Source: a candidate division WOR-3 bacterium
GTDB taxonomy: Bacteria; Hydrothermota; Hydrothermia; UBA1063
DNA: 64,000 nucleotides
NCBI GenBank assembly: GCA_039803545.1
Contig: JBDRYS010000001.1
Coordinates: 1,866-65,865, forward strand
Direction of reading: 5' to 3'
Under the pieces are notes generated by a model. That model was not told where the DNA came from and ran no database searches. It was given only the letters and a program-made list of their open reading frames with translations. Of this stretch, positions 10,664 to 37,183 are shown in pieces (positions within the stretch are counted from its first letter, which is position 1; every line of letters begins with the position of its first letter). A program made the translations under genes and the position numbers.

Positions 10664-13141
10664 TCAGTTGGGGTAGTAACTCCAGAGGTCGACTTCTGCC
10701 AAGGCGTTTTTAAAATCTTCGTATTTGCTTAAAAGAGAGTTCCTTATGTGCCCAATTTCACTGTTTTTTATGTTCTTTGTAATCTCGTAAAAAGCCAAAG
10801 CATTGAGGGCATTCATACTGACTAACTCCTTAATCTCTTTTGTGTCTGCTTGGTAATTATCATTTTGTAGCATTTTGAGTAGTATCTCAAATAGCCTCTT
10901 CCGTGTGAAAATATATTCGCTCTTCGTCTCAACTGCTTCCAGAAGGGTTCTGGCCTCATCAACCTCATTGTTTTTCAAAAGATTTTGAATTAATGCAAGC
11001 AACATCAAATTGGCTTTGTAAATATTCCCTCTCTTTTTTTCGTTGTTAATCTCTTGTTTTGTAAAGATTAGGCCCTCTTTTGTAGAACCAGACTTGACCT
11101 GCAAAAGCCCAAGGTAAAAACGGTAGGGGTAGTTCGTTTTGGGGTTTATGTTTAGAATATCATCGATTGAAAACCTTATAAAGCTTTCAGCACTACGCGG
11201 TGGCAGTAGGTAGAGGTATATTTTCCCTATCTCTTCGAGCAATGTTTCTTTTAAGTGCTTGTTTTTGATTTCATTCAGCGACCACAACACGTTTTCGATG
11301 TGGGTTAGTGCATCGTGGAATTTAAAAGCGAGGAGCAACATTTCCGCCAATTTTAATTCGAGGAATGTCGTTTTTTCTATACTTTTGGATGCCTTCAGAG
11401 CCTTCGTGTAATATTCTATAGCTTTGCTAATTTTGTTTTTGTAAAATTCACAATCGCCCAAGGTTTCAAAAATATTTACCTTTCCATTTTGAAAAGGGCC
11501 ACTAGACTTAGATTTGAATTTTTCAAGAACCATCTGAGTGTTGCATTCAAGTTTATCTGCGTTGTAATCAATTTTGAGTTTAAGCAATAGTAGTTCCTTT
11601 GATAGCCTTTTTTGTTGTGCAAGATATTCCTTGAGAAATCTTGAGACAGTCTTCGTTTCTCCAAGCTCAGTTAAAAGTTCAATTACTTTTGGAATTAATC
11701 GCTTTTGTTCCTTTGCCTCTGTTTTAAGGCCGTTAATGTAGTCAAGTGCCTTTTGGTACTCACCCATGCTAATAAAAAGATTTATAATGGTTTCGTTTAT
11801 GGATGTTTTTTGCCTTTTTGTTTTTGCAAATAATTTTGCTTTTTTTGCATGTTGATATGCTTTCTCGTATTGTTCTTTCTTTAATTCTTCGTTTATGGCC
11901 TCGTAATAGAATTTAAAGGCGTTTTTGTAATCTCCCGAAAGTTCGAAGTGCCTTGCTATTTCCCAGGTAGCAACTGGAAAACCGTTCATTTTTTTAGTAT
12001 GAAGTAACTGGGCATAATGGCCGTGGATTTTTTTAACTTCTCTCTCAGGTAAATTCAGGAGAGGATGAAATTCTACGACCGGATGGTTAGAGTGAATTTT
12101 GTTCTTTATTATTCTAATAATTCCTTTGCTGCTTAAATTTTCGATAATTTTTTCTATGTTTTGAGTTTTTACTTTTGGAAATAGTTTTATGAGGTCTATA
12201 TTGTCCACCGGCCCTGCGGAAGATAGAATTACATAAGTTACTAATTTTTCGTCTTTGCTCATTGATTCGAAAAATTTTTGCGATTTTTCAGGGTAATATT
12301 CTTCATAGGGAAACTCTGAATTCTCGTTTAAAACCCAACCCGAGTTCTCGTCCCATCTAAAAAAGTTCTTAGAGTTGAGGACTTTTAATATCCAGATGAG
12401 TTTCGAATAACTCTTCATACTTCGGTAGTAAAGAAGTTCTAAAATCTCCCGATTAACATTGGGACTTATGAAGAAAGACTGTAAGGTCTTCTGGACATCT
12501 TCGATGGTTATTGAGTCTATTTTAATGGAGGAATTGGGGTCGCTTATGAGTCTGATTTTTTTGAATCCTTTTTCGTTCCGTATTGTTAAAAAATTCCCCT
12601 TTTCTTCTTCAGCAAGGGTTACTTTGCCATTTGTAAATATCTGTATAGCCTCCACTGCAAGGAATGGATTTTCTTCAGGTAAATCAACAAAAATCTCCTT
12701 ATTATCCGAATCTATTAATTCCGCAACCTTTTTGTAACCTTCAATATTTGGAATATGGAGATGCCTCCTGTTATTGCTAATTTTTTCGTAAAACTTTTGA
12801 AACAGAAGGGCAGGAGGGCTTTCAAACTTTTTCAAGTTAAGAGTTGCGCTGTTTAGTTTTCCTCTTAGAAACTTTTTGTAGATTTCCTGTTGCCTCAATT
12901 TCATTAAAAAACTTTTAGGATCTCTTGTCAATATAAGAAGTGAGGAATTGCTGAAGATGAAAATAGCTTCCTTTCCTGAAGATGTGCTGACTTGCATTAA
13001 AGGTTTAAGGAGCTCGGCTGTTCCAATGAGTGGGTATTCTAAGTAGAGAAGGTGGACATGAGAATCTTTTGTTGAAAAGTGGGCTAAGTGAGTTAAAAAA
13101 TCAAAAAAATTAAAAGCCAATGCAAAATCAGGGTTTTCCAT
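10664..13141 (-). CDS. Large TPR-repeat protein with a degenerate STAND-NTPase-like N-terminal region; hypothetical regulator
   Basis: 825 aa, K/E-rich helical repeats in the C-terminal two thirds; no intact Walker A was found. Ends 3 nt upstream of the dprA start, so it is probably co-transcribed. Confidence 0.45.
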   Translation of the reverse strand: MENPDFALAFNFFDFLTHLAHFSTKDSHVHLLYLEYPLIGTAELLKPLMQVSTSSGKEAIFIFSNSSLLILTRDPKSFLMKLRQQEIYKKFLRGKLNSATLNLKKFESPPALLFQKFYEKISNNRRHLHIPNIEGYKKVAELIDSDNKEIFVDLPEENPFLAVEAIQIFTNGKVTLAEEEKGNFLTIRNEKGFKKIRLISDPNSSIKIDSITIEDVQKTLQSFFISPNVNREILELLYYRSMKSYSKLIWILKVLNSKNFFRWDENSGWVLNENSEFPYEEYYPEKSQKFFESMSKDEKLVTYVILSSAGPVDNIDLIKLFPKVKTQNIEKIIENLSSKGIIRIIKNKIHSNHPVVEFHPLLNLPEREVKKIHGHYAQLLHTKKMNGFPVATWEIARHFELSGDYKNAFKFYYEAINEELKKEQYEKAYQHAKKAKLFAKTKRQKTSINETIINLFISMGEYQKALDYINGLKTEAKEQKRLIPKVIELLTELGETKTVSRFLKEYLAQQKRLSKELLLLKLKIDYNADKLECNTQMVLEKFKSKSSGPFQNGKVNIFETLGDCEFYKNKISKAIEYYTKALKASKSIEKTTFLELKLAEMLLLAFKFHDALTHIENVLWSLNEIKNKHLKETLLEEIGKIYLYLLPPRSAESFIRFSIDDILNINPKTNYPYRFYLGLLQVKSGSTKEGLIFTKQEINNEKKRGNIYKANLMLLALIQNLLKNNEVDEARTLLEAVETKSEYIFTRKRLFEILLKMLQNDNYQADTKEIKELVSMNALNALAFYEITKNIKNSEIGHIRNSLLSKYEDFKNALAEVDLWSYYPN

Positions 13142-13196: not shown

Positions 13197-13232
13197 CTTC
13201 GACAAAATTTTCCATTTCGACAATTTTGTCGA
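13197..13232 (+). promoter_or_regulatory. Putative enhancer-binding-protein (UAS) site: perfect 7-2-7 palindrome TCGACAATTTTGTCGA (13217-13232) plus upstream half-site TCGACAAAATTTT
   Basis: Seen directly in sequence, about 45 bp upstream of a sigma-54 -24 element. The motif resembles the palindrome at 32432-32450. Confidence 0.5.
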
Positions 13233-13274
13233 GAATGGACAAGGAAGATGCCTTTGAAGAACTAAAAAAGTGTT

Positions 13275-13290
13275 TGGCACAAAATTTGCA
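13275..13290 (+). promoter_or_regulatory. Sigma-54 (RpoN) -24/-12 promoter TGGCACaaaatTTGCA upstream of the 13324 gene
   Basis: Exact match to the TGGCAC-N5-TTGCA consensus, about 33 nt before the ATG, with RBS AGGAGG at 13312-13317. Confidence 0.6.
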
Positions 13291-13323: not shown

Positions 13324-13884
13324 ATGAGGTACACCAACATAATAAAAATAGCATGGCTCCCTCTCCTTCTGGGCTTGGCCTTTGCCCAGGAGAATACAGG
13401 TACACAAAAGGACTCAACAAACAATTACCGCTACCGGGAACAGTACAGGTATCAGGAACACGTCAGGAATCAAGGGGATACGATTAAGGTAATGTCGGGT
13501 GAGAGGATAATGAATCAGGGGGATACGATACAAATTCGGACTACGAAATCTGTTAAAAATCCTGCAGTACAGAGTGAAATGACCGTTGAAAAAACTATAT
13601 CCAAAGATGGAAACACTCTCATTCAGATTGAAAAAACAGTTATCACGCCAAAGGATACTATTACCATTCAAAAGGAAGTGGGTTCAGCGAGCAGAGATAC
13701 TGTGAGGACAAGGGAACGCCAGAGGATAAGGAACGATTCTGGTTGTGATGGAACTCCAGACACGTTAAGGATTAGGGAAAGAGAACACTTGAGATTAAGG
13801 GATGGTAGCTCCTCAGGAAGCGAAGGAATTGGGACTGGTTTAGGATCCGGCGCGACGCAGAGAAGAAGTAGAAGAAGTAATTAA
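13324..13884 (+). CDS. Secreted low-complexity protein (signal peptide; NQGDTI repeats; R/E-rich tail), unknown function
   Basis: N-terminal signal peptide (WLPLLLGLAFAQ), internal short repeats, followed by a strong terminator. Confidence 0.5.
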   Translation: MRYTNIIKIAWLPLLLGLAFAQENTGTQKDSTNNYRYREQYRYQEHVRNQGDTIKVMSGERIMNQGDTIQIRTTKSVKNPAVQSEMTVEKTISKDGNTLIQIEKTVITPKDTITIQKEVGSASRDTVRTRERQRIRNDSGCDGTPDTLRIREREHLRLRDGSSSGSEGIGTGLGSGATQRRSRRSN

Positions 13885-13897
13885 TAGCCAACTCTTT

Positions 13898-13941
13898 GGG
13901 GCGCACACGGTCAAAGACCGTGTGCGCCCCCTTATAATTTT
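13898..13941 (+). terminator. Rho-independent terminator (15-bp GC-rich stem GGGGCGCACACGGTC/GACCGTGTGCGCCCC, loop AAA, T-rich tail)
   Basis: Perfect inverted repeat seen directly, 14 nt after the stop codon of the 13324-13884 gene. Confidence 0.8.
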
Positions 13942-13955
13942 AACAGGAGGTTCAA

Positions 13956-14999
13956 ATGTTAATTTTCATATTGTTTCAGTTAACTCAGCTAAACCTTAGT
14001 TTCCATAGGGGATTCGATACGAATTTGATGCTGGACACCAGTTATCTTCATGATTATTACAACGGGCTGGATCTTACCTTTGGTCACTACCCCATTGAGA
14101 AACCATGGGGATATGAATTGGCTCTTGGTGGTAGCTTTTTTGACAATTACACAAGCATGAACTTTTTAACTTTTCGTGGCAACCTGTCTTATTTTAAGGA
14201 TTTTGGAGAAGCGGGAAACTACATGGAAAGCGGGGTCGATTTTACATGGGATGTTATATCACCGTACAAATCTTTAACTATAACGCCCGGTGTTGCATCT
14301 AAAATTTATCTTGGGGAAAAGAAGATGTTTAATATTATCCCGAGCTGGGATTTAAATCTCTTGTTAGCTGACGAAAGTTATAATTTCGACAATATTCCAA
14401 AATTGAGGCTTAATGGCAATTTCTTTGGAATTTCAGCGGCACTAACAGGGATGTTAAAATGGAGGTACGGTGCAACCTATGTTGTCTCTTCAACAGGGAT
14501 AGGATATTCGCCTTACGCGGCCCGTTATACCTGGGTTACAAAAAGTCTTTCTGCGGGAAATGCCGGTATCAGATTGGGAAAAAGGTTTGGTGGCCTTCTG
14601 GGTATATTCTATGAATTTGATTATCACTTTTTGCCCACCAGCAACTTAGTAAGTGTGGATAATCTAAAACAAAGGCTTGATCCACTTAACGAGGAAGAGT
14701 TTGCGTACAGTGGAATTTCCAATACCTTTAATGTAAGTTTAATAGTTAGCAAGGTAGCAATTGATTATACCTTTGCGTTGAGTTCTAAGGATTATAGTAT
14801 TGTCGATACTACCCAATCACCTGTTTCACGCCATGACAATGTGTTGGTTCACAGCATTACTGGCAGTATTTCCCTTTTTAAAAAGAGATTTGAGGTTGGT
14901 TTATCCGGCTTTTTCCGTTACGAATCCAATACCTCAACAATGCAAGGATTTTCCTATACACGAAAAGAGGGTGGCGTTGGGCTTTATATGGGCTTATAG
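13956..14999 (+). CDS. Hypothetical outer-membrane beta-barrel-like protein
   Basis: Alternating hydrophobic/aromatic beta-strand-like pattern, rich in G/Y/S/T; no catalytic motif identified. Confidence 0.4.
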   Translation: MLIFILFQLTQLNLSFHRGFDTNLMLDTSYLHDYYNGLDLTFGHYPIEKPWGYELALGGSFFDNYTSMNFLTFRGNLSYFKDFGEAGNYMESGVDFTWDVISPYKSLTITPGVASKIYLGEKKMFNIIPSWDLNLLLADESYNFDNIPKLRLNGNFFGISAALTGMLKWRYGATYVVSSTGIGYSPYAARYTWVTKSLSAGNAGIRLGKRFGGLLGIFYEFDYHFLPTSNLVSVDNLKQRLDPLNEEEFAYSGISNTFNVSLIVSKVAIDYTFALSSKDYSIVDTTQSPVSRHDNVLVHSITGSISLFKKRFEVGLSGFFRYESNTSTMQGFSYTRKEGGVGLYMGL

Positions 15000-15002
15000 G
15001 AG

Positions 15003-15434
15003 GTGTTTATGCACTTTTTGCTTTTAGTTGTTTTAACGGTGATCCCAAAGTATTTTTACAATGTTAGTGATACTGCAACGGTTAAGGGAGAAGTACTCAG
15101 TGTTGAAAGGGAGCAGATAGAAGGAAGTGAAGTTTATCATGTTGTGTTATCTTTTAAAAGCGTTGACACCACTTTAAAAGTGGTATTGGGACCAGCCTGG
15201 TTCATTGAGGAGATACCGAGGAGAGGTGATTCCTGTGTGGTAAGTGGGTCTGTTTTTAGGACAGAAAATGGAATATACTTAATCGCGAGAAAACTGTTTA
15301 ACAGCAGAACAAAGACCTCTATGTCACTGAGGACAGAAAGTGGATTTCCTCTCTGGTATAGACAAAGAGCTTCTGAAAGGTTTATGGATCGGGCTGAAGG
15401 GGGGCAGAATAGGCAGAGGCAAAGGCAAAGGTAA
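15003..15434 (+). CDS. Small secreted/periplasmic hypothetical protein (possible OB-fold), immediately upstream of the sensor kinase
   Basis: N-terminal hydrophobic signal-like segment; C-terminal QNRQRQRQR tail; start abuts the histidine kinase gene. Confidence 0.4.
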   Translation: MFMHFLLLVVLTVIPKYFYNVSDTATVKGEVLSVEREQIEGSEVYHVVLSFKSVDTTLKVVLGPAWFIEEIPRRGDSCVVSGSVFRTENGIYLIARKLFNSRTKTSMSLRTESGFPLWYRQRASERFMDRAEGGQNRQRQRQR

Positions 15435-15437
15435 TTA

Positions 15438-16667
15438 ATGAATTTTAGAAAACTTGTTCTTGTTTTCTTCATTGATATTGTGTTAGTAGTTTCTTTTTTC
15501 GTCTATTTAGTCCAAGAACAGCAAAGGATTTTTAGGGAAGAAAGCAAAAGAGACGCTCAACTTCGATCTGTGCTTGTACGCCAGATGTTTTCCCACCTGG
15601 TAAAGAGTGGAAAAGAAATAGACGACTCACTCTTGAAAGTTGTAGTAGATTCTACAAACCTTGATTATGTTGCCCTCCTGGGAGGAAGAAAACTTCTTCA
15701 CTGGGCTTCGAAATATGAAGGTTTTTTACCCGTCGAGAGTTTTGAAGAGATAAAACCGGGTCGAGTGAGGTTGATTAAACTTCCAGATTATTCGATAGTC
15801 GAATTTTCTTTTTATTTAGATTCCACTATAGTTGTTTGTGGCTTTTCCGATGAACCTTTTTCCAAATTAACGAGGATCACTGTGTATGGTATGGCATTTT
15901 TAGTGGTAGTGTTGTTGATAATATTCGGCATTACTACGTTTTCCTTTTATTTTTTAAATCGGAAGCTCAAAGAGAGGGAGCTGGTCCTCGTCAAAGAGGA
16001 AGAAAAGGCAAAGTATTTCAGGGAACTTGCAGGATTTTCAAGCCAGGTTGCTCATGAGATAAAGAACCCTTTAAATTCAATAAGTATGGCTATACAGCTT
16101 GCCAAACAGAAAGGTTTGTCAGGAGATTTGCTGAAAATTATAGAAGATGAAACAAACAGGTTAAATTCGATAGTTAAACGCTTTTCTTCTGTTTCCAAAG
16201 GGATAGAGATGCACTTGGAAGAGGTAGATTTGACGAAAGTGGTAAGTGATGTTATCACTGATGCAAAGGTCTTTGCCACGGCATATGGGGTTAAAATAGA
16301 ATTTAATGCAAATGGGTTTTCTCAAAAGGTTAAAACGGACCCCTTATTGCTAAAACAGGCTCTTTTTAATATAATTAAAAATGCCATCGAGGCCTTTGAA
16401 GGAGTTTTTAGAGAAGAGAAAGTGGTAAAAGTCAACCTCAAAAAAGAAAAAAGGAAGGTTATTATATCCATTGAAGATAATGGTTCGGGAATGACTGATG
16501 AGGAGGTAAAGAGGGCCTTTGACTTATTTTACTCGACCAAATCTCAGGGTATGGGACTGGGTTTAAGTGTGGTGCGAAGAATTATGGATGCCCTTGGTGG
16601 AGAAGTCAGGTTGGTGAGCAAGAAAGGCGAAGGGACGAAGGTGGAGTTAATTCTTACCCATGGCTGA
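15438..16667 (+). CDS. Sensor histidine kinase (two TM helices flanking an extracytoplasmic sensor region; HisKA + HATPase_c)
   Basis: H-box FSSQVAHEIKNPLNSI; N/G boxes IIKNAIEAF, IEDNGSGM, GMGLGLSVV. Confidence 0.85.
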   Translation: MNFRKLVLVFFIDIVLVVSFFVYLVQEQQRIFREESKRDAQLRSVLVRQMFSHLVKSGKEIDDSLLKVVVDSTNLDYVALLGGRKLLHWASKYEGFLPVESFEEIKPGRVRLIKLPDYSIVEFSFYLDSTIVVCGFSDEPFSKLTRITVYGMAFLVVVLLIIFGITTFSFYFLNRKLKERELVLVKEEEKAKYFRELAGFSSQVAHEIKNPLNSISMAIQLAKQKGLSGDLLKIIEDETNRLNSIVKRFSSVSKGIEMHLEEVDLTKVVSDVITDAKVFATAYGVKIEFNANGFSQKVKTDPLLLKQALFNIIKNAIEAFEGVFREEKVVKVNLKKEKRKVIISIEDNGSGMTDEEVKRAFDLFYSTKSQGMGLGLSVVRRIMDALGGEVRLVSKKGEGTKVELILTHG

Positions 16668-18039
16668 GGAATATACAATTTTAGTCGTCGAAGACGAAGA
16701 AAATGCGCGTAAACTCCTTCTGGAATATTTAGGGAATAACGGATATAAAGTTTTTGGCTGTGCCACCGGCGAGGAGGCACTTCAATTTTGCAGGGAAAAT
16801 TTTGTCGATTTTGCACTGCTCGATATAAGGCTACCCGGAGTGAGCGGGATAGATCTCATTCCAAAGCTTAAGGAAACAAATCCCCTTATAAAGGTCATAA
16901 TGGTTACTGCCCTTGGTGATGTAGATTTGGTTGTAAGGGCTATGTCTATGGGCGCTTCAGATTACGTGGTTAAACCCGTAAACCTTGAAAAACTGTTAGC
17001 AAAAATCGAGGAGATAAAGCCCAAACATATTGAGGAAGTGGAATTAAAGGCTATCAAAGATATCTCTGAACTTCACCTCCCTGAGTTTGTATACGCATCT
17101 GACAAGATGAAGAAAGTGCTTTATTATGTAGTGAGAGCAGCCCGATCCAATGCGCCCTGTTTGATAACAGGTGAAACGGGTACAGGAAAGACTGCCCTTG
17201 CACGAATTATCCATTCCCTTTCTTCGAGGAGAGACGGCCCCTTTGTGGATGTTCATTTACAATCTATACCTGAGACCCTCATTGAAAGTGAACTTTTCGG
17301 ATATGAAAAGGGAGCCTTTACCGGTGCCGATAAGAGCTACGAGGGGCTTATAGTAAGGGCTCAAGGAGGCACCCTTTTCCTTGATGAAATCGGGGAGCTC
17401 AAAAGAGAAATGCAGGTAAAATTGCTTAAGGTGATTGAAGAAAAAATGGTTAGACCGGTAGGTGGAACGCAGCCCAAAAAGGTGGATTTTCGTTTAATTA
17501 CTGCAACTAACAGGGATATTAAAAAAGAAGTCAAACAGGGCACTTTTCGAGAGGATCTTTACTATCGAATCAATGTGATTGAAATTGCTGTTCCACCCCT
17601 AAGGGAGCGGAGGGAGGATATTCCTGTTTTATTGGATTATTTTCTCAAGAAATACAGTAAATCAGAAGGAAAAGAAATAAAGGGCTTTTCAAAGGAGGCG
17701 CTAAAATACCTTTTAAGGTATCACTACCCTGGCAATGTTAGAGAGTTGAGCAATATTGTGGAGAGAGCAACCGTAATGGCTACCAAAAACGTAATAGACG
17801 TGAGTGATTTACCTGAAGAAGTTGTGAGAAGTAGTGCTGCTCATAGCAAATTTGTTTCAGGCGGTGTAACTACTTTGCCAGAGGTCTTAAAGGAGATCGA
17901 AAAGAATATGATCCTTGAAGCTCTAAAGGAGGAAAATTTTGTAAAATTAAGGGCAGCGAAGAAACTTGGGATTTCAGAACGTGTTCTAAGGTATAAAATG
18001 AAGTTATATGGAATTGAAGATGGAAAGGGCGATAGTTAA
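16660..18039 (+). CDS. Sigma-54-dependent response regulator (NtrC family: receiver + AAA+ sigma-54 activator + Fis-type HTH)
   Basis: Receiver (LLDIRLPGVSGIDL), Walker A GETGTGKT, GAFTGA sigma-54 contact motif, ESELFGYEKGAFTGA, C-terminal HTH (KLRAAKKLGISERVLRYKMK). Confidence 0.9.
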   Translation: MAEEYTILVVEDEENARKLLLEYLGNNGYKVFGCATGEEALQFCRENFVDFALLDIRLPGVSGIDLIPKLKETNPLIKVIMVTALGDVDLVVRAMSMGASDYVVKPVNLEKLLAKIEEIKPKHIEEVELKAIKDISELHLPEFVYASDKMKKVLYYVVRAARSNAPCLITGETGTGKTALARIIHSLSSRRDGPFVDVHLQSIPETLIESELFGYEKGAFTGADKSYEGLIVRAQGGTLFLDEIGELKREMQVKLLKVIEEKMVRPVGGTQPKKVDFRLITATNRDIKKEVKQGTFREDLYYRINVIEIAVPPLRERREDIPVLLDYFLKKYSKSEGKEIKGFSKEALKYLLRYHYPGNVRELSNIVERATVMATKNVIDVSDLPEEVVRSSAAHSKFVSGGVTTLPEVLKEIEKNMILEALKEENFVKLRAAKKLGISERVLRYKMKLYGIEDGKGDS

Positions 18040-23070: not shown

Positions 23071-24195
23071 ATGGAAGGTAGGGTCTTAGTTGTAGATCCT
23101 GATACAAAGGTAGCAAGAGAAATTCAGGATGCCCTTGGTGACATAGGTCTGACAGTCTACACTGCAGGGTCCTACGATGAGGCGCAATCTTTTTTAAGTT
23201 TCTACAAAATTGATTACATGATCATGGACCTTATATTACCGGACAAGAATGGAATCGACCTTTTGATTTATACAAAGCAGCTCAATCCTTCCATCAAGGT
23301 TTATGTCTATACAGATGTAAAGGGTGCTACTATAGAGCGTTCGGTTCTCAAAAAGGGTGCTGATGCTTTCATTAACAAGACTGGCAATTTCAGAGAGGAT
23401 TTTAAAAATATATTCTTTGCTCCTCCGAAAGAAGAACCAAGGGAGCAGGTTGAGGCCGTCGAGGGATTTAAGGGCACCGTCACAGGAGTGGACATTATCG
23501 ATATGGTTCAGGCCCTCGCCCTTATGGGTAAATCCGTTATGCTAAGCTGTAGGGATTTGAAAACTCGGAAAGAGGGAGTAATTGTTTTTAAAAATGGGGA
23601 GATTGTAGATGCTAAAACTGGTTCTAAGCGAGGAGAGGAAGCTCTTTTTGAAATTTTGAGTTGGAAAGACGGGGTTTTTGAAACTAAAAAATATACAGAA
23701 GAGCCTGAGAGGACAATTAATGCACCGGTGGATTTGTTGCTTTTAAATTTTGCCCGTCTTAGAGATGAAGCAATGGAGGAGAAAGCTGGAGTATCTTCCC
23801 TCACGCTTAATGACGTTGTCAGGTTCTTTCATGCAGAAATTCCAGGTTTTATTGCTGGTATGGTCTTTGACTACGAGGAAGCTACTCCTATCGCCTTTGA
23901 TACAATTCTTCCTGGAAAAACTTTTCAGGCTTCTGCAACTTTATACGGAGCCATTTTAAAGGCTGCCCAGGAAGCAATGGAGATAGTGACAGAGGGAAAA
24001 GAGAAGCGGGAGGAGCTCTCGGAAATTATTATCACTGATAAGAATGATCACGTGGTACTTTTCCCGCTTCCAGTAAACAATTTTGCCGTTTTTATCCTTG
24101 TATCGAGGGACACACCTATTCAGGAAGTGCGCTCTGTAGTTTTAAAGTATATTCCTGATATCATCAGGTTGCTTAAAGAGGAAAAGATTTCTTAA
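23071..24195 (+). CDS. Response-regulator receiver + DUF4388 + C-terminal roadblock/LC7-like domain protein
   Basis: Receiver (D at MIMDLILPD, K at FINK), then GTVTGVDIIDMVQALALMGKSVMLS...GEEALFEILSWKDGVFE (DUF4388 signature), then a roughly 110-aa alpha/beta C-terminal region. Confidence 0.65.
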   Translation: MEGRVLVVDPDTKVAREIQDALGDIGLTVYTAGSYDEAQSFLSFYKIDYMIMDLILPDKNGIDLLIYTKQLNPSIKVYVYTDVKGATIERSVLKKGADAFINKTGNFREDFKNIFFAPPKEEPREQVEAVEGFKGTVTGVDIIDMVQALALMGKSVMLSCRDLKTRKEGVIVFKNGEIVDAKTGSKRGEEALFEILSWKDGVFETKKYTEEPERTINAPVDLLLLNFARLRDEAMEEKAGVSSLTLNDVVRFFHAEIPGFIAGMVFDYEEATPIAFDTILPGKTFQASATLYGAILKAAQEAMEIVTEGKEKREELSEIIITDKNDHVVLFPLPVNNFAVFILVSRDTPIQEVRSVVLKYIPDIIRLLKEEKIS

Positions 24196-24196
24196 A

Positions 24197-25048
24197 GTGG
24201 TCCTCCCTTTTGATGCAAAGATTGTCGAAATTCTCAAAAAGAAAGGTATCTCCTTAGAGACCCTTTTGGAAGGGTATCTTCGCGGAAGACACAGGAGCCC
24301 CTTTTATGGCCATAGCCTGGAATTTAAAGACCTCAGACCTTATGAAAAGGGTGACGATTTAAAGTTCATCGATTGGAGACTCTACGGAAGGAGTGAAAAA
24401 TTTTTTGTAAAAAAGTTTGAAGAGGAAACCAATGTTAGAGTTTTTATCGCTCTCGATATTTCTCGTTCTATGTCTCTATATGATAAAGGAAAGATGGCGA
24501 GGGGTGTCGCGGCGGCGATTGCCCTTTTGTCTTACTACTCGAGGGACGCCATTGGCCTTTATCTTTTTAACGAAGGAGAAGTTTTCTTCTTGCCTCCTTC
24601 AACCACCTATAAAAATCTATTCCTTCTTCTTGAAAGCCTTGATAAATTCGAGGATTCTGGGAGGACCAATTTTGTTTTAGCGATGCTTGGCCTCGATGAG
24701 AGGGTTAGGAAGAGAAGTCTACTGGTGGTAATATCCGATTTTTTGAGTGAGATTGAAAGTATAAAAAAGTTCGTGAGGTTTTTTAAGGGCAAAGGGCATG
24801 AAATTATACCTTTGATAGTTTCATCTCAACGGGAAAAAAGTTTGTCAATGCACGAGGCGAGATTAAAAGATATTGAGACAGGCTATGAGCTCAGTTTGAG
24901 TAGAGTCGAGAGTTTTCGATATGGAGAAATGATCAATCAGCATTATACCGAGCTTAAAGTTCTCTTAAGAAATTTCGGCATCCCTTTTTTTGAATTCCAG
25001 GCGGAGATGGATTTAACATTGCAATTAAGGAGCTTTTTGGAAGGATGA
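24197..25048 (+). CDS. DUF58 (vWA-like, MoxR-associated) protein
   Basis: GHSLEFKDLRPYEKGDDLKFIDWRLYGRSEKFFVKKFEEE followed by the DxSxS-like VFIALDISRSM MIDAS motif. Confidence 0.75.
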   Translation: MVLPFDAKIVEILKKKGISLETLLEGYLRGRHRSPFYGHSLEFKDLRPYEKGDDLKFIDWRLYGRSEKFFVKKFEEETNVRVFIALDISRSMSLYDKGKMARGVAAAIALLSYYSRDAIGLYLFNEGEVFFLPPSTTYKNLFLLLESLDKFEDSGRTNFVLAMLGLDERVRKRSLLVVISDFLSEIESIKKFVRFFKGKGHEIIPLIVSSQREKSLSMHEARLKDIETGYELSLSRVESFRYGEMINQHYTELKVLLRNFGIPFFEFQAEMDLTLQLRSFLEG

Positions 25049-26460
25049 ACTTCCTGAGCCCGGTTTTTTTGTATTTTTTGCCACTTTCCCTTCTACCCCT
25101 AATTTCACTTTTTCTTAAAAAACGTAGTTCAAGAATTAAGTTCGTCTCCTGGCTCTTTTTACTAAAAGATAGTGAATTTGCCAGGAAAAGAAAATTTCAT
25201 AGAAACTTGATCATTATCTTAAGGTGTCTCATTTTGGCGCTTCTACTAATTTTTTTGGCAAAGCCCATACCTTCTCGGTATGCCTTTAGGAAGATTTATT
25301 TTGAGACGGGTATTTTTTCCCAAAAAGCAGAGGCAAAGAACCGTAAATATTTGCGCTCCCTAATGGGTTATTTTGGGGGGAGGGTGGATGCCTTTTGTGA
25401 TCCTCTGAAGCCAGAACAGAAACTAAATGGGAAAATTTATATAGTATCTGACTTTTCTGATCCTGGCATATATCAACGATTTTCGGGTGGTTTTTACTTT
25501 GATACCCTTTCGATATCAAATGCAGGGATAAATTCCGTAAATTTTGACCCGGTGAGCAAAGCTTACTACTTGAAAATTACCAATTACAACAAGAAGGACT
25601 CGGTTTTTCATATCGTAGTTTATATGAACTCCAGAAAACTTTCGGAAAGTAGTTTTATTCTACCTAAGACTAAAACAATTTTGTGGAAACAAGAGATACC
25701 TGAAGGTGGAAGGCTTCTTAAGATTTGCCTTATGCCAGAGGATGACATTTTACTGGATAACTGCCTTGAACTCTCAGCCCCTGAGAAACTGAAATATTAC
25801 CTCGCTTCTCTCAACCTCTGTGTAGAAAACTTTATGCAAATTGTTGGAATCAAAACCTCTTTGGACAGTGCTGACGTTCTAATATCCTTTAACAGGGTTC
25901 TTAAGCCTGGAAAAAAGACAAAGGAAGTCATAATATTTTTTGATAAGCCCGTGGAAGGTATAAAATCGGTAATTGACGATTCCTTAAAGGAGTCGGGTCC
26001 TTTTAAAATTTCGGGGTGGAACTTTGGAAAAGTTTTTTTGTCAGATACCTCAAAAGGTTTTACCGATGTTAGAAGTTTCTTACAGAGAGCCACTCTTAAG
26101 TTAAACTTAAATGGAGTTACGTATGTGTTCGTCGGCCTTGTTCCGGACATTGAGAAAAACGATGCAGTATATTGCCCGGATTTCTGGAGTTACTTCTTGC
26201 AACTACTAAATATTAAGCCTGTAATAGCTTATACTACTACAAAAGAAAGGGCAGGGAAAATTTTGAACGATACGCTGTTTTTGCCTGACACTTTACAGAC
26301 AAATACTTCTCGAGCTCAGGAAGTTAGCTTGAGTTCCCACTATTTGCCTCTTCCGGAAGTAGTCAAAACGGTTAACACAATAAGGTATTTAATATTGGGC
26401 CTTTTAATTTTGCTTGTAGCCTTGGAGTTTTACTTAACCTTCAGGTATTTCTTTGATTGA
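25045..26460 (+). CDS. Membrane protein with BatA-type N-terminal double-TM domain (aerotolerance-operon-like), large soluble region and C-terminal TM
   Basis: MNFLSPVFLYFLPLSLLPLISLFLKKR...WLFLLKD matches the N-terminal double-transmembrane domain of BatA/BatB-like proteins; C-terminal hydrophobic anchor. Confidence 0.55.
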   Translation: MNFLSPVFLYFLPLSLLPLISLFLKKRSSRIKFVSWLFLLKDSEFARKRKFHRNLIIILRCLILALLLIFLAKPIPSRYAFRKIYFETGIFSQKAEAKNRKYLRSLMGYFGGRVDAFCDPLKPEQKLNGKIYIVSDFSDPGIYQRFSGGFYFDTLSISNAGINSVNFDPVSKAYYLKITNYNKKDSVFHIVVYMNSRKLSESSFILPKTKTILWKQEIPEGGRLLKICLMPEDDILLDNCLELSAPEKLKYYLASLNLCVENFMQIVGIKTSLDSADVLISFNRVLKPGKKTKEVIIFFDKPVEGIKSVIDDSLKESGPFKISGWNFGKVFLSDTSKGFTDVRSFLQRATLKLNLNGVTYVFVGLVPDIEKNDAVYCPDFWSYFLQLLNIKPVIAYTTTKERAGKILNDTLFLPDTLQTNTSRAQEVSLSSHYLPLPEVVKTVNTIRYLILGLLILLVALEFYLTFRYFFD

Positions 26461-32431: not shown

Positions 32432-32481
32432 TTGCACAATTTTTGTGCAATATAGATCCCTTTTGCATAATTTTTGTTCAA
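32432..32481 (+). promoter_or_regulatory. Tandem putative enhancer (UAS) sites: perfect palindrome TTGCACAATTTTTGTGCAA (32432-32450) and degenerate copy TTTGCATAATTTTTGTTCAA (32462-32481)
   Basis: Inverted repeat seen directly, 50-80 bp upstream of a sigma-54 promoter. Confidence 0.55.
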
Positions 32482-32497
32482 AAGCACCTTTTACTTT

Positions 32498-32513
32498 TGG
32501 CACACTTTTTGCA
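32498..32513 (+). promoter_or_regulatory. Sigma-54 (RpoN) -24/-12 promoter TGGCACactttTTGCA upstream of the 32537 operon
   Basis: Exact TGGCAC-N5-TTGCA consensus, 24 nt before the ATG; RBS AAGGAGG at 32524-32530. Confidence 0.6.
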
Positions 32514-32536: not shown

Positions 32537-33325
32537 ATGAGGTTTAGAATCCATCAAAGGTTACTTTTAAAGTCAGCTTTTCTTTTCTCAATTTTAGCTC
32601 TCTCCTGTCAAAATGTTGATACTACACCGCCAGCTGCGCCCACAGGCCTTACCAGTGTCACCGGCGATAGAGCGGTATATCTTTACTGGAATCCTAATAA
32701 AGAAAAGGACCTTGCTGGTTATCGGGTTTACAGAAACACTGCCCCATCGGGTTACTTTATGATGATTGCAGATGTAAGGGAAAATAGTTATGTGGACAGG
32801 GATGTGGAAAATGGCATCACTTATTATTACGCAGTAAGTGCCTATGATTCTGCAGGAAATGAAAGTGAACTTTCTCAAAAAGATTGTTTCGATACCCCGC
32901 GCCCCGAGGGGTACAATATGAAAATCTACGAAAAAGACTACTTACCATCCTTTTCTGGATATTGTTTTAACAAATATAGCCCTGTCCCTTATAACTCTGC
33001 AGATGCCGATTTTTACTTTGATGTTCAGAGTGGTACTGCCAGGATTGTAGCCAGTGTTGGGACTTTGATTCAGGATATGGGAGCTTACAATATGGATGAT
33101 ATCTCCTATGCGCCCTTGACGGGGTGGGATTCCGATGGAGTGCTGGATGCAATTCAAGGGCATGTCTATGTAGTTTGGACAAGGGATAATCACTTTGCTA
33201 AATTTCGAATAAAGGTTCTGGATAATACTTTCCTTGTATTTGATTGGGCGTATCAGGTGGCGGTAGGGAACAGGGAATTGGTGAAGAAAAATTTAATAGA
33301 AAACAAGGGGGTGTCCCATGATTAA
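32537..33325 (+). CDS. Lipoprotein with fibronectin type III domain
   Basis: Signal peptide plus lipobox (ILALSC); PAAPTGLTSV...YRVYR...YYYAVSAYDSAGNES FN3 signature. Confidence 0.55.
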   Translation: MRFRIHQRLLLKSAFLFSILALSCQNVDTTPPAAPTGLTSVTGDRAVYLYWNPNKEKDLAGYRVYRNTAPSGYFMMIADVRENSYVDRDVENGITYYYAVSAYDSAGNESELSQKDCFDTPRPEGYNMKIYEKDYLPSFSGYCFNKYSPVPYNSADADFYFDVQSGTARIVASVGTLIQDMGAYNMDDISYAPLTGWDSDGVLDAIQGHVYVVWTRDNHFAKFRIKVLDNTFLVFDWAYQVAVGNRELVKKNLIENKGVSHD

Positions 33326-35114
33326 GCTTTTGATGTTAATCTCTTTGATGTACTCTGGGGCTGAGTTCGCCCGGGTGGGCGACCTCAGAGGCGATGCAAA
33401 GATTTGGAGATATGGTGAAGAAGGTTCCGAATGGTTAACCATAAATAACATAATCGGTGAAGGCGATGAATTACTCACCTACGATGATTCTTACCTTGAA
33501 ATAGAGTTCAGTGACGGTTCTGTTTTAACCCTTGGGAATAACACCAGTGTCTACTTTGATCGCATTGAGGATGACAGGACTTACTTTACATTGAACAAAG
33601 GGGTCGCGAGAGTTTATGCTCGTGAGAGAGTTTTCGGAGTTTTTGCCGGTGATCATGCAGTTTACGTAGAGGAAGGTTCTATTGTGCGGGTGGAATCTGA
33701 TAGTGATTACTTCCTCGCAAGGGTATATAGGGGTAGTGCCGAAGTTGACAAGAAGAAAATTTATGCGGGGTCTGAGGTAATTATAGATAGAGGTAGGTAT
33801 TACTCAGGGAGGGCTGGAAGTTATGATCGGTTAGACAGATGGGCAGAGGAGAGGGAAAGGAATTATTATGTAATTACGAGGGTCGAATATGTTCCTGTAC
33901 GTTGCTATATAGGCATTTATCATCTTCATAGACATGGTAGATGGGTCTTCATCCGCCCTTATGGTTGGGTTTGGGTTCCGAGGGTGCCAAGATCCTGGAG
34001 ACCTTACTACGATGGATACTGGGTTTATAGACCGGGGCTCGGTTGGGTTTGGGTTTCTTATGAGCCATGGGGTTGGATTCCATATAGATACGGTAGCTGG
34101 ACTTACATTGTTGGCTATGGGTGGGTATGGATCCCAGGTGAAACCTTTGCTGGTGCCTGGGTAGAGTGGTATTATGGACCCGATTGGGTAGGGTGGGCTC
34201 CCATTGACTATTATGGAAAGCCGATTATTGTAGTGAACAACATAACGGTGGTAAATATTGTTAGCAAGGAAGACTTCCATAAACCTATCTATCGCTATAA
34301 GCCACCAAAATCTGGCGTCTATAAAGAGGTTTATAAGCCTTACAAAGGCGTTGATGTGAAAGAAGTTGTTAGGTATAAGGCGACGGAGCTGGAAAAGCCG
34401 ATTTACTTTAAGAAAGTGGATGTGGTAAAGGAAGAGGAAAAGCCAATAATACATGGGAAAGGCGAGCTAATAAAGGTAAAGACAGTGGAAAAAGACCTTG
34501 GAGAAAATAGAGGGGGCCAGTTATACCCGGAAAGGCCAGTGGTGGAGAAGAAGGCCGATGTGAGGATAGAAAAAGAGGTGCAAGTAGAGGAAAAGTTGAA
34601 ACCAAAGGAAAAGGAGGTTGAAAAACCTTTAACGAAGGAGAAGACCTTGGAGAAGGAGTCAGGTACAAACGTAATACCTGAAAAACCTGTTAAGAGGGTA
34701 GAAGAGGAGGAATCGAAGCCCGAAATATATCCAGAAAGGCCTTCTTATAGAGACTACAAGTCTAAGCTTCTCGAAAAAGAAGATTATGAAAGGCCGAGGG
34801 GAGAGACACCGACCCGTAGGGAGAGTAGCGTTAAAGAGGAGAGAAGAACAGAGGTAAGGCCTTATACGCCCCCTGCTATTGAAAGAAAGACTTTTAAAGA
34901 AGAGGGCTCAGATGGAAGGAGTTGGTATCGATACAAGGAGGCGGAAAAGGTCAAGGTAGAGGACAAGGCTAAGGGTCGTGTTATTCCTGAAGTCAAAGCA
35001 CTTAGTCCCTCCGATAATATTCCCCAGAATAAACCGGAACTTAAAAAGAGAGTTGAAAAGAAAGCCGAAGAGGATGATAATCATAAAAATGTCAAAGGGG
35101 AGGATGAGAAATGA
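33318..35114 (+). CDS. FecR-domain protein with Trp-rich (GWxWxP) repeat region and long K/E-rich low-complexity C-terminal tail
   Basis: Signal peptide; FecR-like segment (GDELLTYDDSYLEIEFSDGSVLTLGNNTSVYF); then YGWVWVPRVPRSWRPYYDGYWVYRPGLGWVWVSYEPWGWIPYRYG... repeats; then EKPxxK-type charged repeats. Confidence 0.5.
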   Translation: MIKLLMLISLMYSGAEFARVGDLRGDAKIWRYGEEGSEWLTINNIIGEGDELLTYDDSYLEIEFSDGSVLTLGNNTSVYFDRIEDDRTYFTLNKGVARVYARERVFGVFAGDHAVYVEEGSIVRVESDSDYFLARVYRGSAEVDKKKIYAGSEVIIDRGRYYSGRAGSYDRLDRWAEERERNYYVITRVEYVPVRCYIGIYHLHRHGRWVFIRPYGWVWVPRVPRSWRPYYDGYWVYRPGLGWVWVSYEPWGWIPYRYGSWTYIVGYGWVWIPGETFAGAWVEWYYGPDWVGWAPIDYYGKPIIVVNNITVVNIVSKEDFHKPIYRYKPPKSGVYKEVYKPYKGVDVKEVVRYKATELEKPIYFKKVDVVKEEEKPIIHGKGELIKVKTVEKDLGENRGGQLYPERPVVEKKADVRIEKEVQVEEKLKPKEKEVEKPLTKEKTLEKESGTNVIPEKPVKRVEEEESKPEIYPERPSYRDYKSKLLEKEDYERPRGETPTRRESSVKEERRTEVRPYTPPAIERKTFKEEGSDGRSWYRYKEAEKVKVEDKAKGRVIPEVKALSPSDNIPQNKPELKKRVEKKAEEDDNHKNVKGEDEK

Positions 35115-35341
35115 GACGGGTGTTAATTTTGATTTTTATTCTCTTTACACAAGGCTTTTCCTACGGGGGAGAAGGGGATACTATCCCCTCTCCTCCTTCC
35201 AAGGCCCAAAATTCCCAGGTTAAAATAGAAAAGAAAAAATTTAAAGACGAGAATAAAGATGGGTTCAACGATCTCAGAGATAAAGGTGATTACGAGAAAT
35301 TATTAAAAGAGGTGTTGAAAGAGAGGAAGGGTAAAAGATGA
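35111..35341 (+). CDS. Small secreted hypothetical protein
   Basis: 76-aa ORF with N-terminal hydrophobic segment; translationally coupled within the operon. Confidence 0.35.
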   Translation: MRRVLILIFILFTQGFSYGGEGDTIPSPPSKAQNSQVKIEKKKFKDENKDGFNDLRDKGDYEKLLKEVLKERKGKR

Positions 35342-35715
35342 AGCGCTTAGTTTTTATTTTCTCTGCCTTTCTGCTTCTTTCCTGCGGATATAAAGCTCCC
35401 CCACCGGGTAAACCAGACATCAATCCTCCCCAGGTACGAATAACTTACCCTCAGGAGGGCGACACGGTTTATACAGATACTTCTGTAAGTTTTCTGATAA
35501 ATGATGAATCCCAGATCAAGAGGGTTGCCTTAATTATAAATGAAAAGGCAGTGAGAGTGGATTCAGCCCCTCCCTTTACTCTCCCCCTCAAGTTAGAGGA
35601 TATTCAGGATTCTGTAGCAATAATTAAGGTAAGGGCAGTGGACATATGGGATAATACGGGTGAGTCGAAACCTGTGAAGGTTTTCCGCCCTTTAATGAAG
35701 GAAGAGGAGGATTGA
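35338..35715 (+). CDS. Small lipoprotein with Ig-like/BIG-type domain
   Basis: Lipobox LLLSCGY; beta-rich domain (PPQVRITYPQEGDTVYTDTSVSF...VRAVDIWDNTG). Confidence 0.45.
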   Translation: MKRLVFIFSAFLLLSCGYKAPPPGKPDINPPQVRITYPQEGDTVYTDTSVSFLINDESQIKRVALIINEKAVRVDSAPPFTLPLKLEDIQDSVAIIKVRAVDIWDNTGESKPVKVFRPLMKEEED

Positions 35716-36810: not shown

Positions 36811-37183
36811 GGGTGAGGGAGGTCTGTAAGCCGAGTTCTGTCGAGGGAAGTCATTTCTCTTAATCCACCGTCACCGGTGGATTTCAGCGGTCTACCCGGG
36901 GCTTAGTCACCCATTCGGGTGGCTAGGAGCGGGCCACTCCATCGCCCCTGCTTGACCTTGCTCCGGGTGGGGGTTGCCATGGTGCCACTTGCGTGACACC
37001 ATCGTGGGCTCTTACCCCACGGTTTCACCTTAGCCTGAGCCCTTTCGGGCCATCGGCTGTTTGGTTTCTGTGGCCCTATCCGTCGCGTTACCGCGCCCAC
37101 CTGTTAGGTGGCACCCTGCCCTTTGGAGCTCGGACTTTCCTCATCCCCAAAACGGGGACGCGACTTCCCGACCTCCCTCACCA
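36811..37183 (-). ncRNA. rnpB: RNase P RNA (bacterial type A), minus strand
   Basis: Reverse complement contains GAGGAAAGTCCGAGCTCC (P4), ACAGAAACCAAACAGCCGATGGCCCGAAAGGGC, GGTAAGAGCCCAC, CACCCGGAGCAAGGTCAAGCAGGGG, ACAGAACTCGGCTTA, with a 13-bp P1 pairing GGTGAGGGAGGTC/GACCTCCCTCACC closing the molecule. The ORF-track ORFs 36903-37100 and 36993-37196 are artefacts of this GC-rich RNA. Confidence 0.85.

Follow-up and report, generated by a model that had tools for sequence, protein, structure and literature searches.

Two sigma-54 promoters and one sigma-54 activator lie in a 64,000-nt stretch (here the window) of contig JBDRYS010000001.1 from a candidate division WOR-3 (Hydrothermia) bacterium, and the question that the locus raises is which of the two promoters the activator controls. 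To our knowledge, no member of this group is both cultured and genetically tractable, so that its regulatory wiring can only be predicted. The activator is encoded with a sensor histidine kinase, and an earlier note on this DNA had placed the pair between two sigma-54 operons and named it as the candidate regulator of both. The comparison of promoters and activators across lineages described below suggests instead that the activator switches on only the adjacent secreted-protein gene, and not the second promoter 14 kb away. With moderate confidence, the region is read as the regulatory half of a conserved envelope-sensing module of WOR-3 bacteria, in a predicted picture of two regulons.

Open reading frames (ORFs) were listed and their translations scanned against Pfam, both for the module and for the remaining genes of the window. 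The activator is identical to MEO0238314.1, a protein from a candidate division WOR-3 metagenome-assembled genome that is encoded on a contig of 1.07 Mb. It contains the receiver, sigma-54 AAA+ and Fis-type helix-turn-helix (HTH) domains of an NtrC-type enhancer-binding protein (Response_reg PF00072, 1.6e-28; Sigma54_activat PF00158, 8.1e-66; AAA_lid_14; HTH_8 PF02954, 8.6e-12). The receiver residues D11/E12, D55, T83 and K105 are present, and the AAA+ motifs are intact (Walker A GETGTGKT, residues 171-178; GAFTGA, 218-223; Walker B LFLDEIGE, 239-246). A six-frame tblastn search of the window with the AAA+ domain found no second sigma-54 AAA+ domain, in agreement with the Pfam scans of the window genes, which also found no rpoN. 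The protein is thus a genuine NtrC-type activator and the only enhancer-binding protein in the window, as the earlier note had claimed.

The same note had described the partner as a sensor kinase with an extracytoplasmic loop whose gene abuts that of the activator, and both points are borne out. The kinase belongs to class I (HisKA) and contains all of the H-box, N-box, G1 and G2 motifs, with H206 lying within AHEIKNPLN (residues 205-213). Two transmembrane (TM) segments, placed by hydropathy only at residues ~5-26 and ~150-175, enclose a periplasmic loop of ~120 residues. Pfam scans identified no known domain in this loop and neither a HAMP nor a PAS domain in the kinase; a homologue of the sensor region occurs in L016 (L-numbers denote the loci compared, which were fetched by activator protein or by promoter-pattern scans). 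An 8-nt overlap (ATGGCTGA) joins the kinase gene to that of the activator.

Perfect matches to TGGCAC-N5-TTGC occur exactly twice in the window, at 13275 and 32498 and both on the plus strand, against 0.08 expected. Both are intergenic and have, 30-35 nt downstream, a strong ribosome-binding site and the start of an exported-protein gene; they carry the GG/-24 and GC/-12 elements at exact spacing, and are conserved in orthologues. The first, promoter 1 (P1), heads a module of five genes (13324-18039). The kinase/activator pair is the 3' part of this cluster rather than an element standing between two operons. The second, promoter 2 (P2), precedes an operon for envelope proteins.

Orthologous P1 regions from five WOR-3 lineages were aligned (alignment A1). 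The long invariant runs in A1 are the two halves of a palindrome, TCGACAA-N2-TTGTCGA, a left half-site 18-19 bp upstream of it, and the -24/-12 elements; invariant positions are otherwise scattered single columns. The upstream half-site, GACAA.ATT, is the left half of a weaker, distal copy of the palindrome. The main palindrome is centred ~52 nt upstream of the -24 GG, that is, at about -76, and the gap between it and the promoter is fixed at 39-42 nt in the alignment. A further match to the palindrome with one mismatch, at 6855, lies within a coding region and was taken as chance.

The same palindrome adjoins homologous activators in six loci outside this set of orthologues (L013, L016, L056, L077, L119 and L120). 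As an independent test, seven loci were picked through the activator protein rather than through DNA. In six of the seven, the operon linked to the activator has perfect TCGACA-N4-TGTCGA in its promoter region; none has the palindrome type of P2. By a rough hand calculation, fewer than 0.01 chance occurrences of a 12-base pattern of this kind are expected in a 20-kb locus. The seventh locus, L017 (WOR-3, 50% activator identity), has the variant CGTCAA-AA-TTGACG together with a slightly altered recognition helix, SERAIRYKMK.

Gene order differs widely among these loci. L016 (53% identity) encodes the activator, then a promoter, two MamS/MamX-like genes with DUF2202 and DUF4405 genes, and the kinase, and its perfect TCGACAAAATTGTCGA is immediately 3' of the activator gene. 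The order in L120 (48% identity) is MamS/MamX, DUF4405 twice, MamS/MamX, kinase and activator, with TCGACAAAAGTGTCGA above the sigma-54 promoter. L119 (Syntrophorhabdus, 49% identity) has TCGACATTATTGTCGA before Gly-zipper and CpxP/ZraP-like genes, followed by kinase and activator. The arrangement is divergent in L013 (Wallbacteria), where TCGACAATTTTGTCGA and a sigma-54 promoter precede a gene (4113-4631) for a very Cys-rich protein of 172 aa with a hydrophobic, signal-peptide-like N-terminus and no Pfam family; this gene is transcribed away from those for a kinase of 657 aa and an activator of 39% identity; in L056 and L077, as in L016, the promoter is downstream of the activator. The palindrome is always upstream of the sigma-54 promoter, at the 39-110 nt typical of activator sites. 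Three GC-rich matches of the P1 class (L034, L057 and L065) have a 27-nt gap, lie inside apparent coding sequence, and are probably due to chance.

Activators linked to this palindrome share the recognition helix LG(I/V)SER(V/M)LRYK with many other proteins at 46-55% identity from several phyla. Because the same palindrome adjoins same-helix activators in other gene orders and phyla, TCGACAA-N2-TTGTCGA is the likely operator of activators with the helix GISERVLRYKMK, and the window activator very probably regulates P1. Judging from the conserved promoter with its adjoining palindrome, it would drive this promoter from the upstream site in an ATP-dependent manner.

Binding of the activator to the palindrome is a prediction, and the site could belong to another protein, such as a repressor of P1 or of the TPR gene (10664-13141, minus strand) that is divergent from the module and is kept beside it in several WOR-3 genomes; the activator would then act elsewhere, and its adjacency would be mere synteny. 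This explanation is improbable. The palindrome travels with homologous activators in the six loci listed above, which lack the TPR gene; it stays with P1 in L001, where chromate-transporter genes stand between the TPR gene and the module; and it always lies 39-110 nt above a sigma-54 promoter.

P2 has a palindrome of its own, TGCACAA-N3-TTGTGCA, which is invariant in an alignment of orthologous promoters from seven lineages (alignment A2). GTDB genomes and JGI metagenomes were scanned with a degenerate pattern (a sigma-54 promoter, a gap of 25-55 nt and TSSACAA-N2-3-TTGTSSA) that admits 32 possible classes of half-site and spacer. Only two classes were enriched: CG/N2/CG, the class of P1 (28 loci, 21 distinct), and GC/N3/GC, the class of P2 (25 loci, 16 distinct). 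All other classes, including the cross types CG/N3/CG and GC/N2/GC, had at most four distinct promoters. An activator homologue is present at CG/N2/CG loci whenever the flank reaches far enough, while no activator gene was found near the GC/N3/GC promoters in any of the 25 loci. Among promoters of the GC/N3/GC class with an identifiable downstream gene, most precede orthologues (at least 45% identity) of the genes for fn3-like, FecR+DUF6600 and Big_7 proteins that form the P2 operon. Some members stand before other genes (L024, L082 and L083); downstream in L024 and L082, a small unknown protein and an ORF that by eye resembles an ECF sigma factor were all that was seen. Others are in repeat arrays (L026, L044, L059 and L112). 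The latter four are short metagenome contigs with three to five copies of TTGCACAAGAATTGTGCAAG around the promoter-like GTGGCAAAATTCTTGCA.

Since the P2 palindrome differs from that of P1, is equally conserved and is never seen beside an activator gene, P2 is probably under a second activator, most likely an unlinked one encoded outside the window. The proposal that one regulator serves both promoters is therefore supported for P1, whose operator tracks same-helix activators, and not for P2. A single activator that binds both palindromes and fires both promoters, giving one secreted-protein regulon, would be in keeping with the sole activator found in 64 kb, with the small genomes of WOR-3 bacteria, in which activators may be few, and with the resemblance of the two control regions: the operators have ACAA/TTGT cores and similar distances, and the promoters and translation start regions are nearly identical. 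In the 64 kb, the complete 8-nt Shine-Dalgarno sequence AGGAGGTG stands before four gene starts only (13312, 14998, 32525 and, on the minus strand, 61697), namely those of gene 1 of the module, the OB-fold gene (gene 3), the first gene of the P2 operon and hsp20, and GGAGGTGCRAAATG is common to gene 1 and the P2 gene (two matches against 0.09 expected). Nevertheless, a shared activator is unlikely. CG half-sites with a spacer of 2 nt define one class and GC half-sites with a spacer of 3 nt the other; no switch between them was seen at orthologous promoters, and the cross types remain at background level. Activators with the window helix are linked in cis to the P1 type only, and the small helix change in L017 accompanies a changed half-site. 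An N3-spaced CG variant pairs with a different helix: in L106 (7110-7172) and L117 (3983-4045), which derive from a GC-rich organism, TTCGACAA-N3-TTGTCGAA stands 31 nt before a sigma-54 promoter and is divergent from an operon encoding an activator with the helix GISPRMMYYKMGRLGI, which is a separate operator/activator pair. Finally, the sigma-54 response regulators that have been mapped experimentally in Desulfovibrio vulgaris use one validated palindrome each, at a spacing that is fixed (PMC3333781, Table S7).

A third palindrome, TGGACAA-AC-TTGTCCA, was observed 36-51 nt above a sigma-54 promoter (TTGGCATGATTATTGC) in L019, L028, L052, L075, L086 and L115. These contigs form one metagenome family, two of them with a weak match to the window activator (33%, E ~2e-10) several kb away, and the palindrome is possibly another operator class.

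Table 1. Positions of the module, its control elements and the P2 region in the window (".", no strand assigned)
Feature	Position	Strand	Basis or remark
Weaker, distal operator-like site TCGACAAAATTTTCCA	13199-13214	.	Two mismatches to the palindrome; 18 bp above the main site
Predicted operator (upstream activating sequence) TCGACAA-TT-TTGTCGA	13217-13232	.	Perfect palindrome; invariant in WOR-3 orthologous promoters
Sigma-54 promoter P1 TTGGCACAAAATTTGCA	13274-13290	+	Perfect consensus; -24/-12 invariant in orthologues
Gene 1, 186 aa, charged, low-complexity	13324-13884	+	Predicted main sigma-54 output
GC-rich hairpin, 15 bp (terminator or attenuator)	13898-13930	+	Directly 3' of gene 1
TATAAT	13933-13938	+	After the hairpin, before the gene 2 ribosome-binding site
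Gene 2, 347 aa, predicted all-beta	13956-14999	+	No known family; found only in WOR-3 modules
Gene 3, 143-aa ORF, probable MamS/MamX-family OB-fold, membrane-anchored or secreted	15009-15434	+	ORF opens at 15003
Sensor histidine kinase, 409 aa	15438-16667	+	HisKA 2.4e-11, HATPase_c 1.1e-23 (Pfam)
NtrC-family sigma-54 activator, 459 aa, REC-AAA+-HTH_8	16660-18039	+	Pfam and motifs
GAFTGA	17311-17328	+	AAA+ domain of the activator
Recognition helix LGISERVLRYKMK	17965-18003	+	HTH of the activator
P2 operator TGCACAA-TTT-TTGTGCA	32433-32449	.	Perfect palindrome; invariant in seven lineages
Weaker P2-type site TGCATAATTTTTGTTCA	32464-32480	.	31 bp below the first; partly kept in L009 and L010
Sigma-54 promoter P2 TTGGCACACTTTTTGCA	32497-32513	+	Perfect consensus; conserved in orthologues
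P2 operon: 262-aa fn3-like, 598-aa FecR+DUF6600, 125-aa Big_7	32537-35715	+	Pfam

The closest solved full-length structures to the activator are Aquifex aeolicus NtrC1 and NtrC4 (4l4u, 6e-105; 1ny5; 3dzd), and ZraR is also among the closest. NtrC1 and NtrC4 have the same three-domain layout and GAFTGA motif, and the DNA-binding domain of the activator matches the A. aeolicus NtrC-family domains 2m8g and 4l5e. However, the recognition helices differ (GIPLRTLYKRLKEYGI in NtrC1 and GYTLRQLDYRIKKYGI in 2m8g versus GISERVLRYKMKLYGI here), and the sites of these proteins are therefore not transferable. No solved DNA-binding domain shares the helix, and neither operator corresponds to any motif validated for the sigma-54 regulators of D. 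vulgaris (PMC3333781, Table S7). Literature searches on the operator strings, on WOR-3 with sigma-54, and on MamS/MamX with two-component systems found nothing relevant.

The logic of the locus resembles that of ZraPSR in Escherichia coli and Salmonella and of DVU3381/3382/3384 in D. vulgaris, in which a membrane kinase and a REC-AAA+-HTH activator adjoin a sigma-54-driven gene for a small periplasmic protein. As in ZraPSR, relatives of the window activator drive genes of the CpxP/Spy/ZraP family (L056 and, more weakly, L119). Unlike ZraPSR, gene 1 of the window has no LTXXQ motif, and the module has extra conserved genes for a 347-aa protein and a MamS/MamX-type OB-fold protein. The validated DVU3381 site is GTATA-N5-TATAC (PMC3333781), whereas the window operator is TCGACA-N4-TGTCGA.

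Accessory extracytoplasmic proteins are thought to modulate the kinase in QseE/QseG/QseF (GlrK/GlrR) and in CpxA/CpxP/CpxR, and QseF/GlrR is a sigma-54 activator. The window pair is likewise encoded with an extracytoplasmic accessory protein, although this is an OB-fold protein of MamS/MamX type rather than a lipoprotein such as QseG or an LTXXQ protein, and the activator scores 302 bits against the NCBIfam model for GlrR (cut-off 763). The operator of NtrC is TGCACC-N5-GGTGCA, a 17-bp palindrome. The P2 operator, TGCACAA-N3-TTGTGCA, has the same 17-bp geometry and a GCAC/GTGC core, whereas the P1 operator is not alike; the P2 operon encodes envelope proteins, unlike the nitrogen-assimilation targets of NtrC.

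The pair could in principle be the WOR-3 orthologue of AtoSC, NtrBC or ZraSR, with the function of that system (acetoacetate, nitrogen or zinc). Its best NCBIfam similarities are to AtoC, NtrC and ZraR for the activator and to AtoS and ZraS for the kinase, and the likeness to ZraPSR extends to the LTXXQ proteins controlled by its relatives. All of these scores fall far below the equivalog cut-offs, which makes such an identity very improbable: for the activator, 429.1 versus 714 for AtoC (the NF008468/NF008469 pair), 377.6 versus 558.6 for NtrC (TIGR01818) and 363.3 versus 760 for ZraR (the NF007688/NF007689 pair); for the kinase, 153.7 versus 646 for AtoS, over the kinase core only, and 142 versus 479 for ZraS. 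Moreover, the kinase is membrane-bound and lacks a PAS domain, unlike NtrB, the ZraP-like neighbour is missing as gene 1 is not an LTXXQ protein, and the linked operator, TCGACAA-N2-TTGTCGA, is neither the TGCACC-N5-GGTGCA of NtrC nor related to the validated site of the ZraR-like DVU3381 (PMC3333781). Pfam scans of the window identified no nitrogen or acetoacetate genes nearby. As both proteins score well below all NCBIfam equivalog cut-offs, the activator is a member of an unnamed subfamily of the NtrC-type two-component family.

The module as a whole is conserved. Its order is a ~185-aa protein, a ~347-aa protein, a ~140-aa MamS_MamX protein, the kinase and the activator, and the same five genes in the same order are found in L001, L003 and L004 (80%, 64% and 59% activator identity); L008 also carries this module. 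Genes 1 and 2 are separated by 71 nt, and gene 3 and the kinase gene by 3 nt. The gap between genes 2 and 3 is 3 nt by ORF coordinates and 9 nt if gene 3 starts at ATG 15009, which is probably its start because this codon is directly behind the AGGAGGTG at 14998. Downstream, the start of an rlmI-like PUA/SAM methyltransferase gene overlaps the last 32 nt of the activator gene (18008-18039), including its stop codon, and fabD follows without a gap. The activator/rlmI-like overlap is kept in L001, L003 and L004, and by this arrangement the sensor genes appear to share a transcript with housekeeping genes.

Gene 1 encodes a protein with a signal-peptide-like N-terminus (MRYTNIIKIAWLPLLLGLAFAQ/E; this and the other signal-peptide-like or lipoprotein-like N-termini mentioned here were judged by eye from translations, including the lipoprotein-like ones of the 262-aa and 125-aa P2 operon products). 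It matched no Pfam or NCBIfam family, and neither LTXXQ nor Metal_resist even at E-values up to 1. An iterated profile search of all fetched loci found its orthologues only in WOR-3 modules. These share a C-terminal motif ending in ...RERERLRLRDGS(C/S), within a C-terminal ...DENGDGIPD...RERERLRLRDGSC arrangement. The DENGDGIPD segment, a thrombospondin-type-3-like loop, precedes the short motif LRDGSC, which reads LRDGSS in the window (13780-13860). LRDGSC is found in gene 1 of L003, L004 and L008, in L100 (136-435 and 446-1183), where it recurs at the C-termini of operator-linked proteins, and in L068. Unrelated proteins encoded behind TCGACAA-type sigma-54 promoters, one of them a DUF2202 protein, carry it at or close to their C-termini, and it may be a shared sorting or recognition tag.

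A hairpin and TATAAT follow gene 1 at the equivalent position in L001, L003 and L004 despite diverged sequence, and TATAAT is 10-15 nt before the gene 2 ribosome-binding site in all four lineages (at ~4960 in L001, ~7292 in L003 and ~7283 in L004). Because of these conserved elements, gene 1 is read as the main sigma-54 output. TATAAT is a possible -10 element for constitutive transcription of the sensor genes from within the module. Since the rlmI-like gene and fabD have the look of housekeeping genes, it is unlikely that genes 2-5 are read only from a promoter that their own product activates. An Rfam scan of the module found no RNA element.

Word-indexed searches returned few homologues of the accessory proteins, three close relatives for the 143-aa protein and four for the 347-aa protein. 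The latter, gene 2, is possibly an outer-membrane barrel, a low-confidence suggestion. Homologues of gene 3 (99%, 90% and 57% identity) and its orthologues in L001-L003 carry precomputed PF26390 (MamS_MamX) annotations; the copy of Pfam searched here gave no PF26390 match for any tested protein, and a weak OB match to tRNA_anti-codon for gene 3. The gene 3 protein has a hydrophobic helix at its N-terminus, and in its AlphaFold2 (AF2) model (core pLDDT 72-86) a TM helix is followed by an OB barrel, which Foldseek matches to the OB folds of SSB, PriB and Stn1. In an iterated profile search of all fetched loci, gene 3 homologues were found only in P1-type systems. A MamS/MamX-type gene is directly upstream of the kinase gene in WOR-3, L016 and L120 despite their differing gene orders, and in L016, L032/L064 and L120 the gene that comes first after the operator encodes a MamS/MamX-like protein. 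The suggestion that the small protein encoded before the kinase is a periplasmic partner is therefore plausible, and the OB-fold protein is a plausible candidate for a periplasmic co-sensor.

Targets of the same operator in other lineages include LTXXQ/Metal_resist proteins (L056, 3.5e-10; weaker in L119), MamS/MamX-like, DUF2202 and DUF4405 proteins, and proteins rich in Cys or in Gly/Arg whose N-termini are hydrophobic and signal-peptide-like. Genes for DUF2202 and DUF4405 proteins belong to the conserved accessory set of ferrosome clusters (bioRxiv 10.1101/2020.01.10.902569). On account of these CpxP/ZraP-like, MamS/MamX-like, DUF2202 and DUF4405 targets of related systems, analogy suggests a role in an envelope or metal stress response, like that of ZraPSR or CpxAPR.

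A working model can be outlined from these elements. The kinase would sense an extracytoplasmic cue through its ~120-aa periplasmic loop, probably together with the OB-fold protein, and would phosphorylate D55 of the activator. Activator dimers would then bind TCGACAA-N2-TTGTCGA and its weaker neighbour, ~76 nt upstream of the start site, and form an AAA+ ring whose GAFTGA loops would open the sigma-54 promoter at 13275. Gene 1 would be the strongly induced output, with the hairpin ending or attenuating its transcript. Genes 2-5 would probably also be expressed constitutively from TATAAT, along with the rlmI-like gene and fabD, and some read-through from P1 would provide feedback.

Several observations weigh against parts of this model. 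The two operators share the core T..ACAA/TTGT..A, which makes cross-recognition conceivable, and if the small genome had a single activator, the same protein would have to serve P2. The predicted operator is unusually near its promoter (~-76), and the putative internal sigma-70 promoter has a conserved TATAAT without a clear -35 element. The AF2 model of gene 2 (pLDDT 31, ~14 long strands) is unreliable, and unusable because the protein has few relatives. Lastly, the envelope/metal stress role is drawn from the targets of other lineages, gene 1 itself having no recognizable family.

Other features of the window lie outside this system. The only other receiver protein, a REC-DUF4388 (PatA_N) regulator at 23071, is not a sigma-54 activator; its gene is followed by DUF58/VWA and BatA-like genes in a conserved cluster (23071-26460), also present in L001 and L003, which makes up the window's second signalling module. 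A full-length class A RNase P RNA (36811-37179, minus strand, 275 bits) lies between a MerR-family gene and gcvH. Three genes encode large secreted proteins: a C25 gingipain-like peptidase, a GH18 chitinase-like protein with SH3, and a 1552-aa FG-GAP protein with a C-terminal FlgD_ig (805-3990; 47783-49951, minus strand; 54534-59192).

In itself, the kinase/activator pair is no surprise: it conforms well to the NtrC family, which is very large. What the comparison adds is a concrete operator prediction for an activator subfamily that spans several phyla, and the separation of two sigma-54 regulons that an argument from proximity would merge. It also nominates as a sensor-kinase partner an OB-fold family that had been known from magnetosome gene clusters only. 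More speculatively, and with doubt prevailing, GISER(V/M)LRYK activators with their kinases and OB-fold partners could constitute a widespread, experimentally uncharacterised system of anaerobes (WOR-3, Wallbacteria, Syntrophorhabdus and others) that responds to envelope metal stress, possibly that of iron. Such a system would use one operator code, TCGACA-N4-TGTCGA, for a regulon of CpxP/ZraP-like, DUF2202/DUF4405 and small secreted LRDGSC proteins; the OB-fold protein would be a ligand-binding co-sensor, in WOR-3 possibly joined with the 347-aa protein in a trans-envelope relay. If the link to CpxP/ZraP-like and ferrosome genes is true, it would point to a common envelope/metal stress circuit in anaerobic bacteria.

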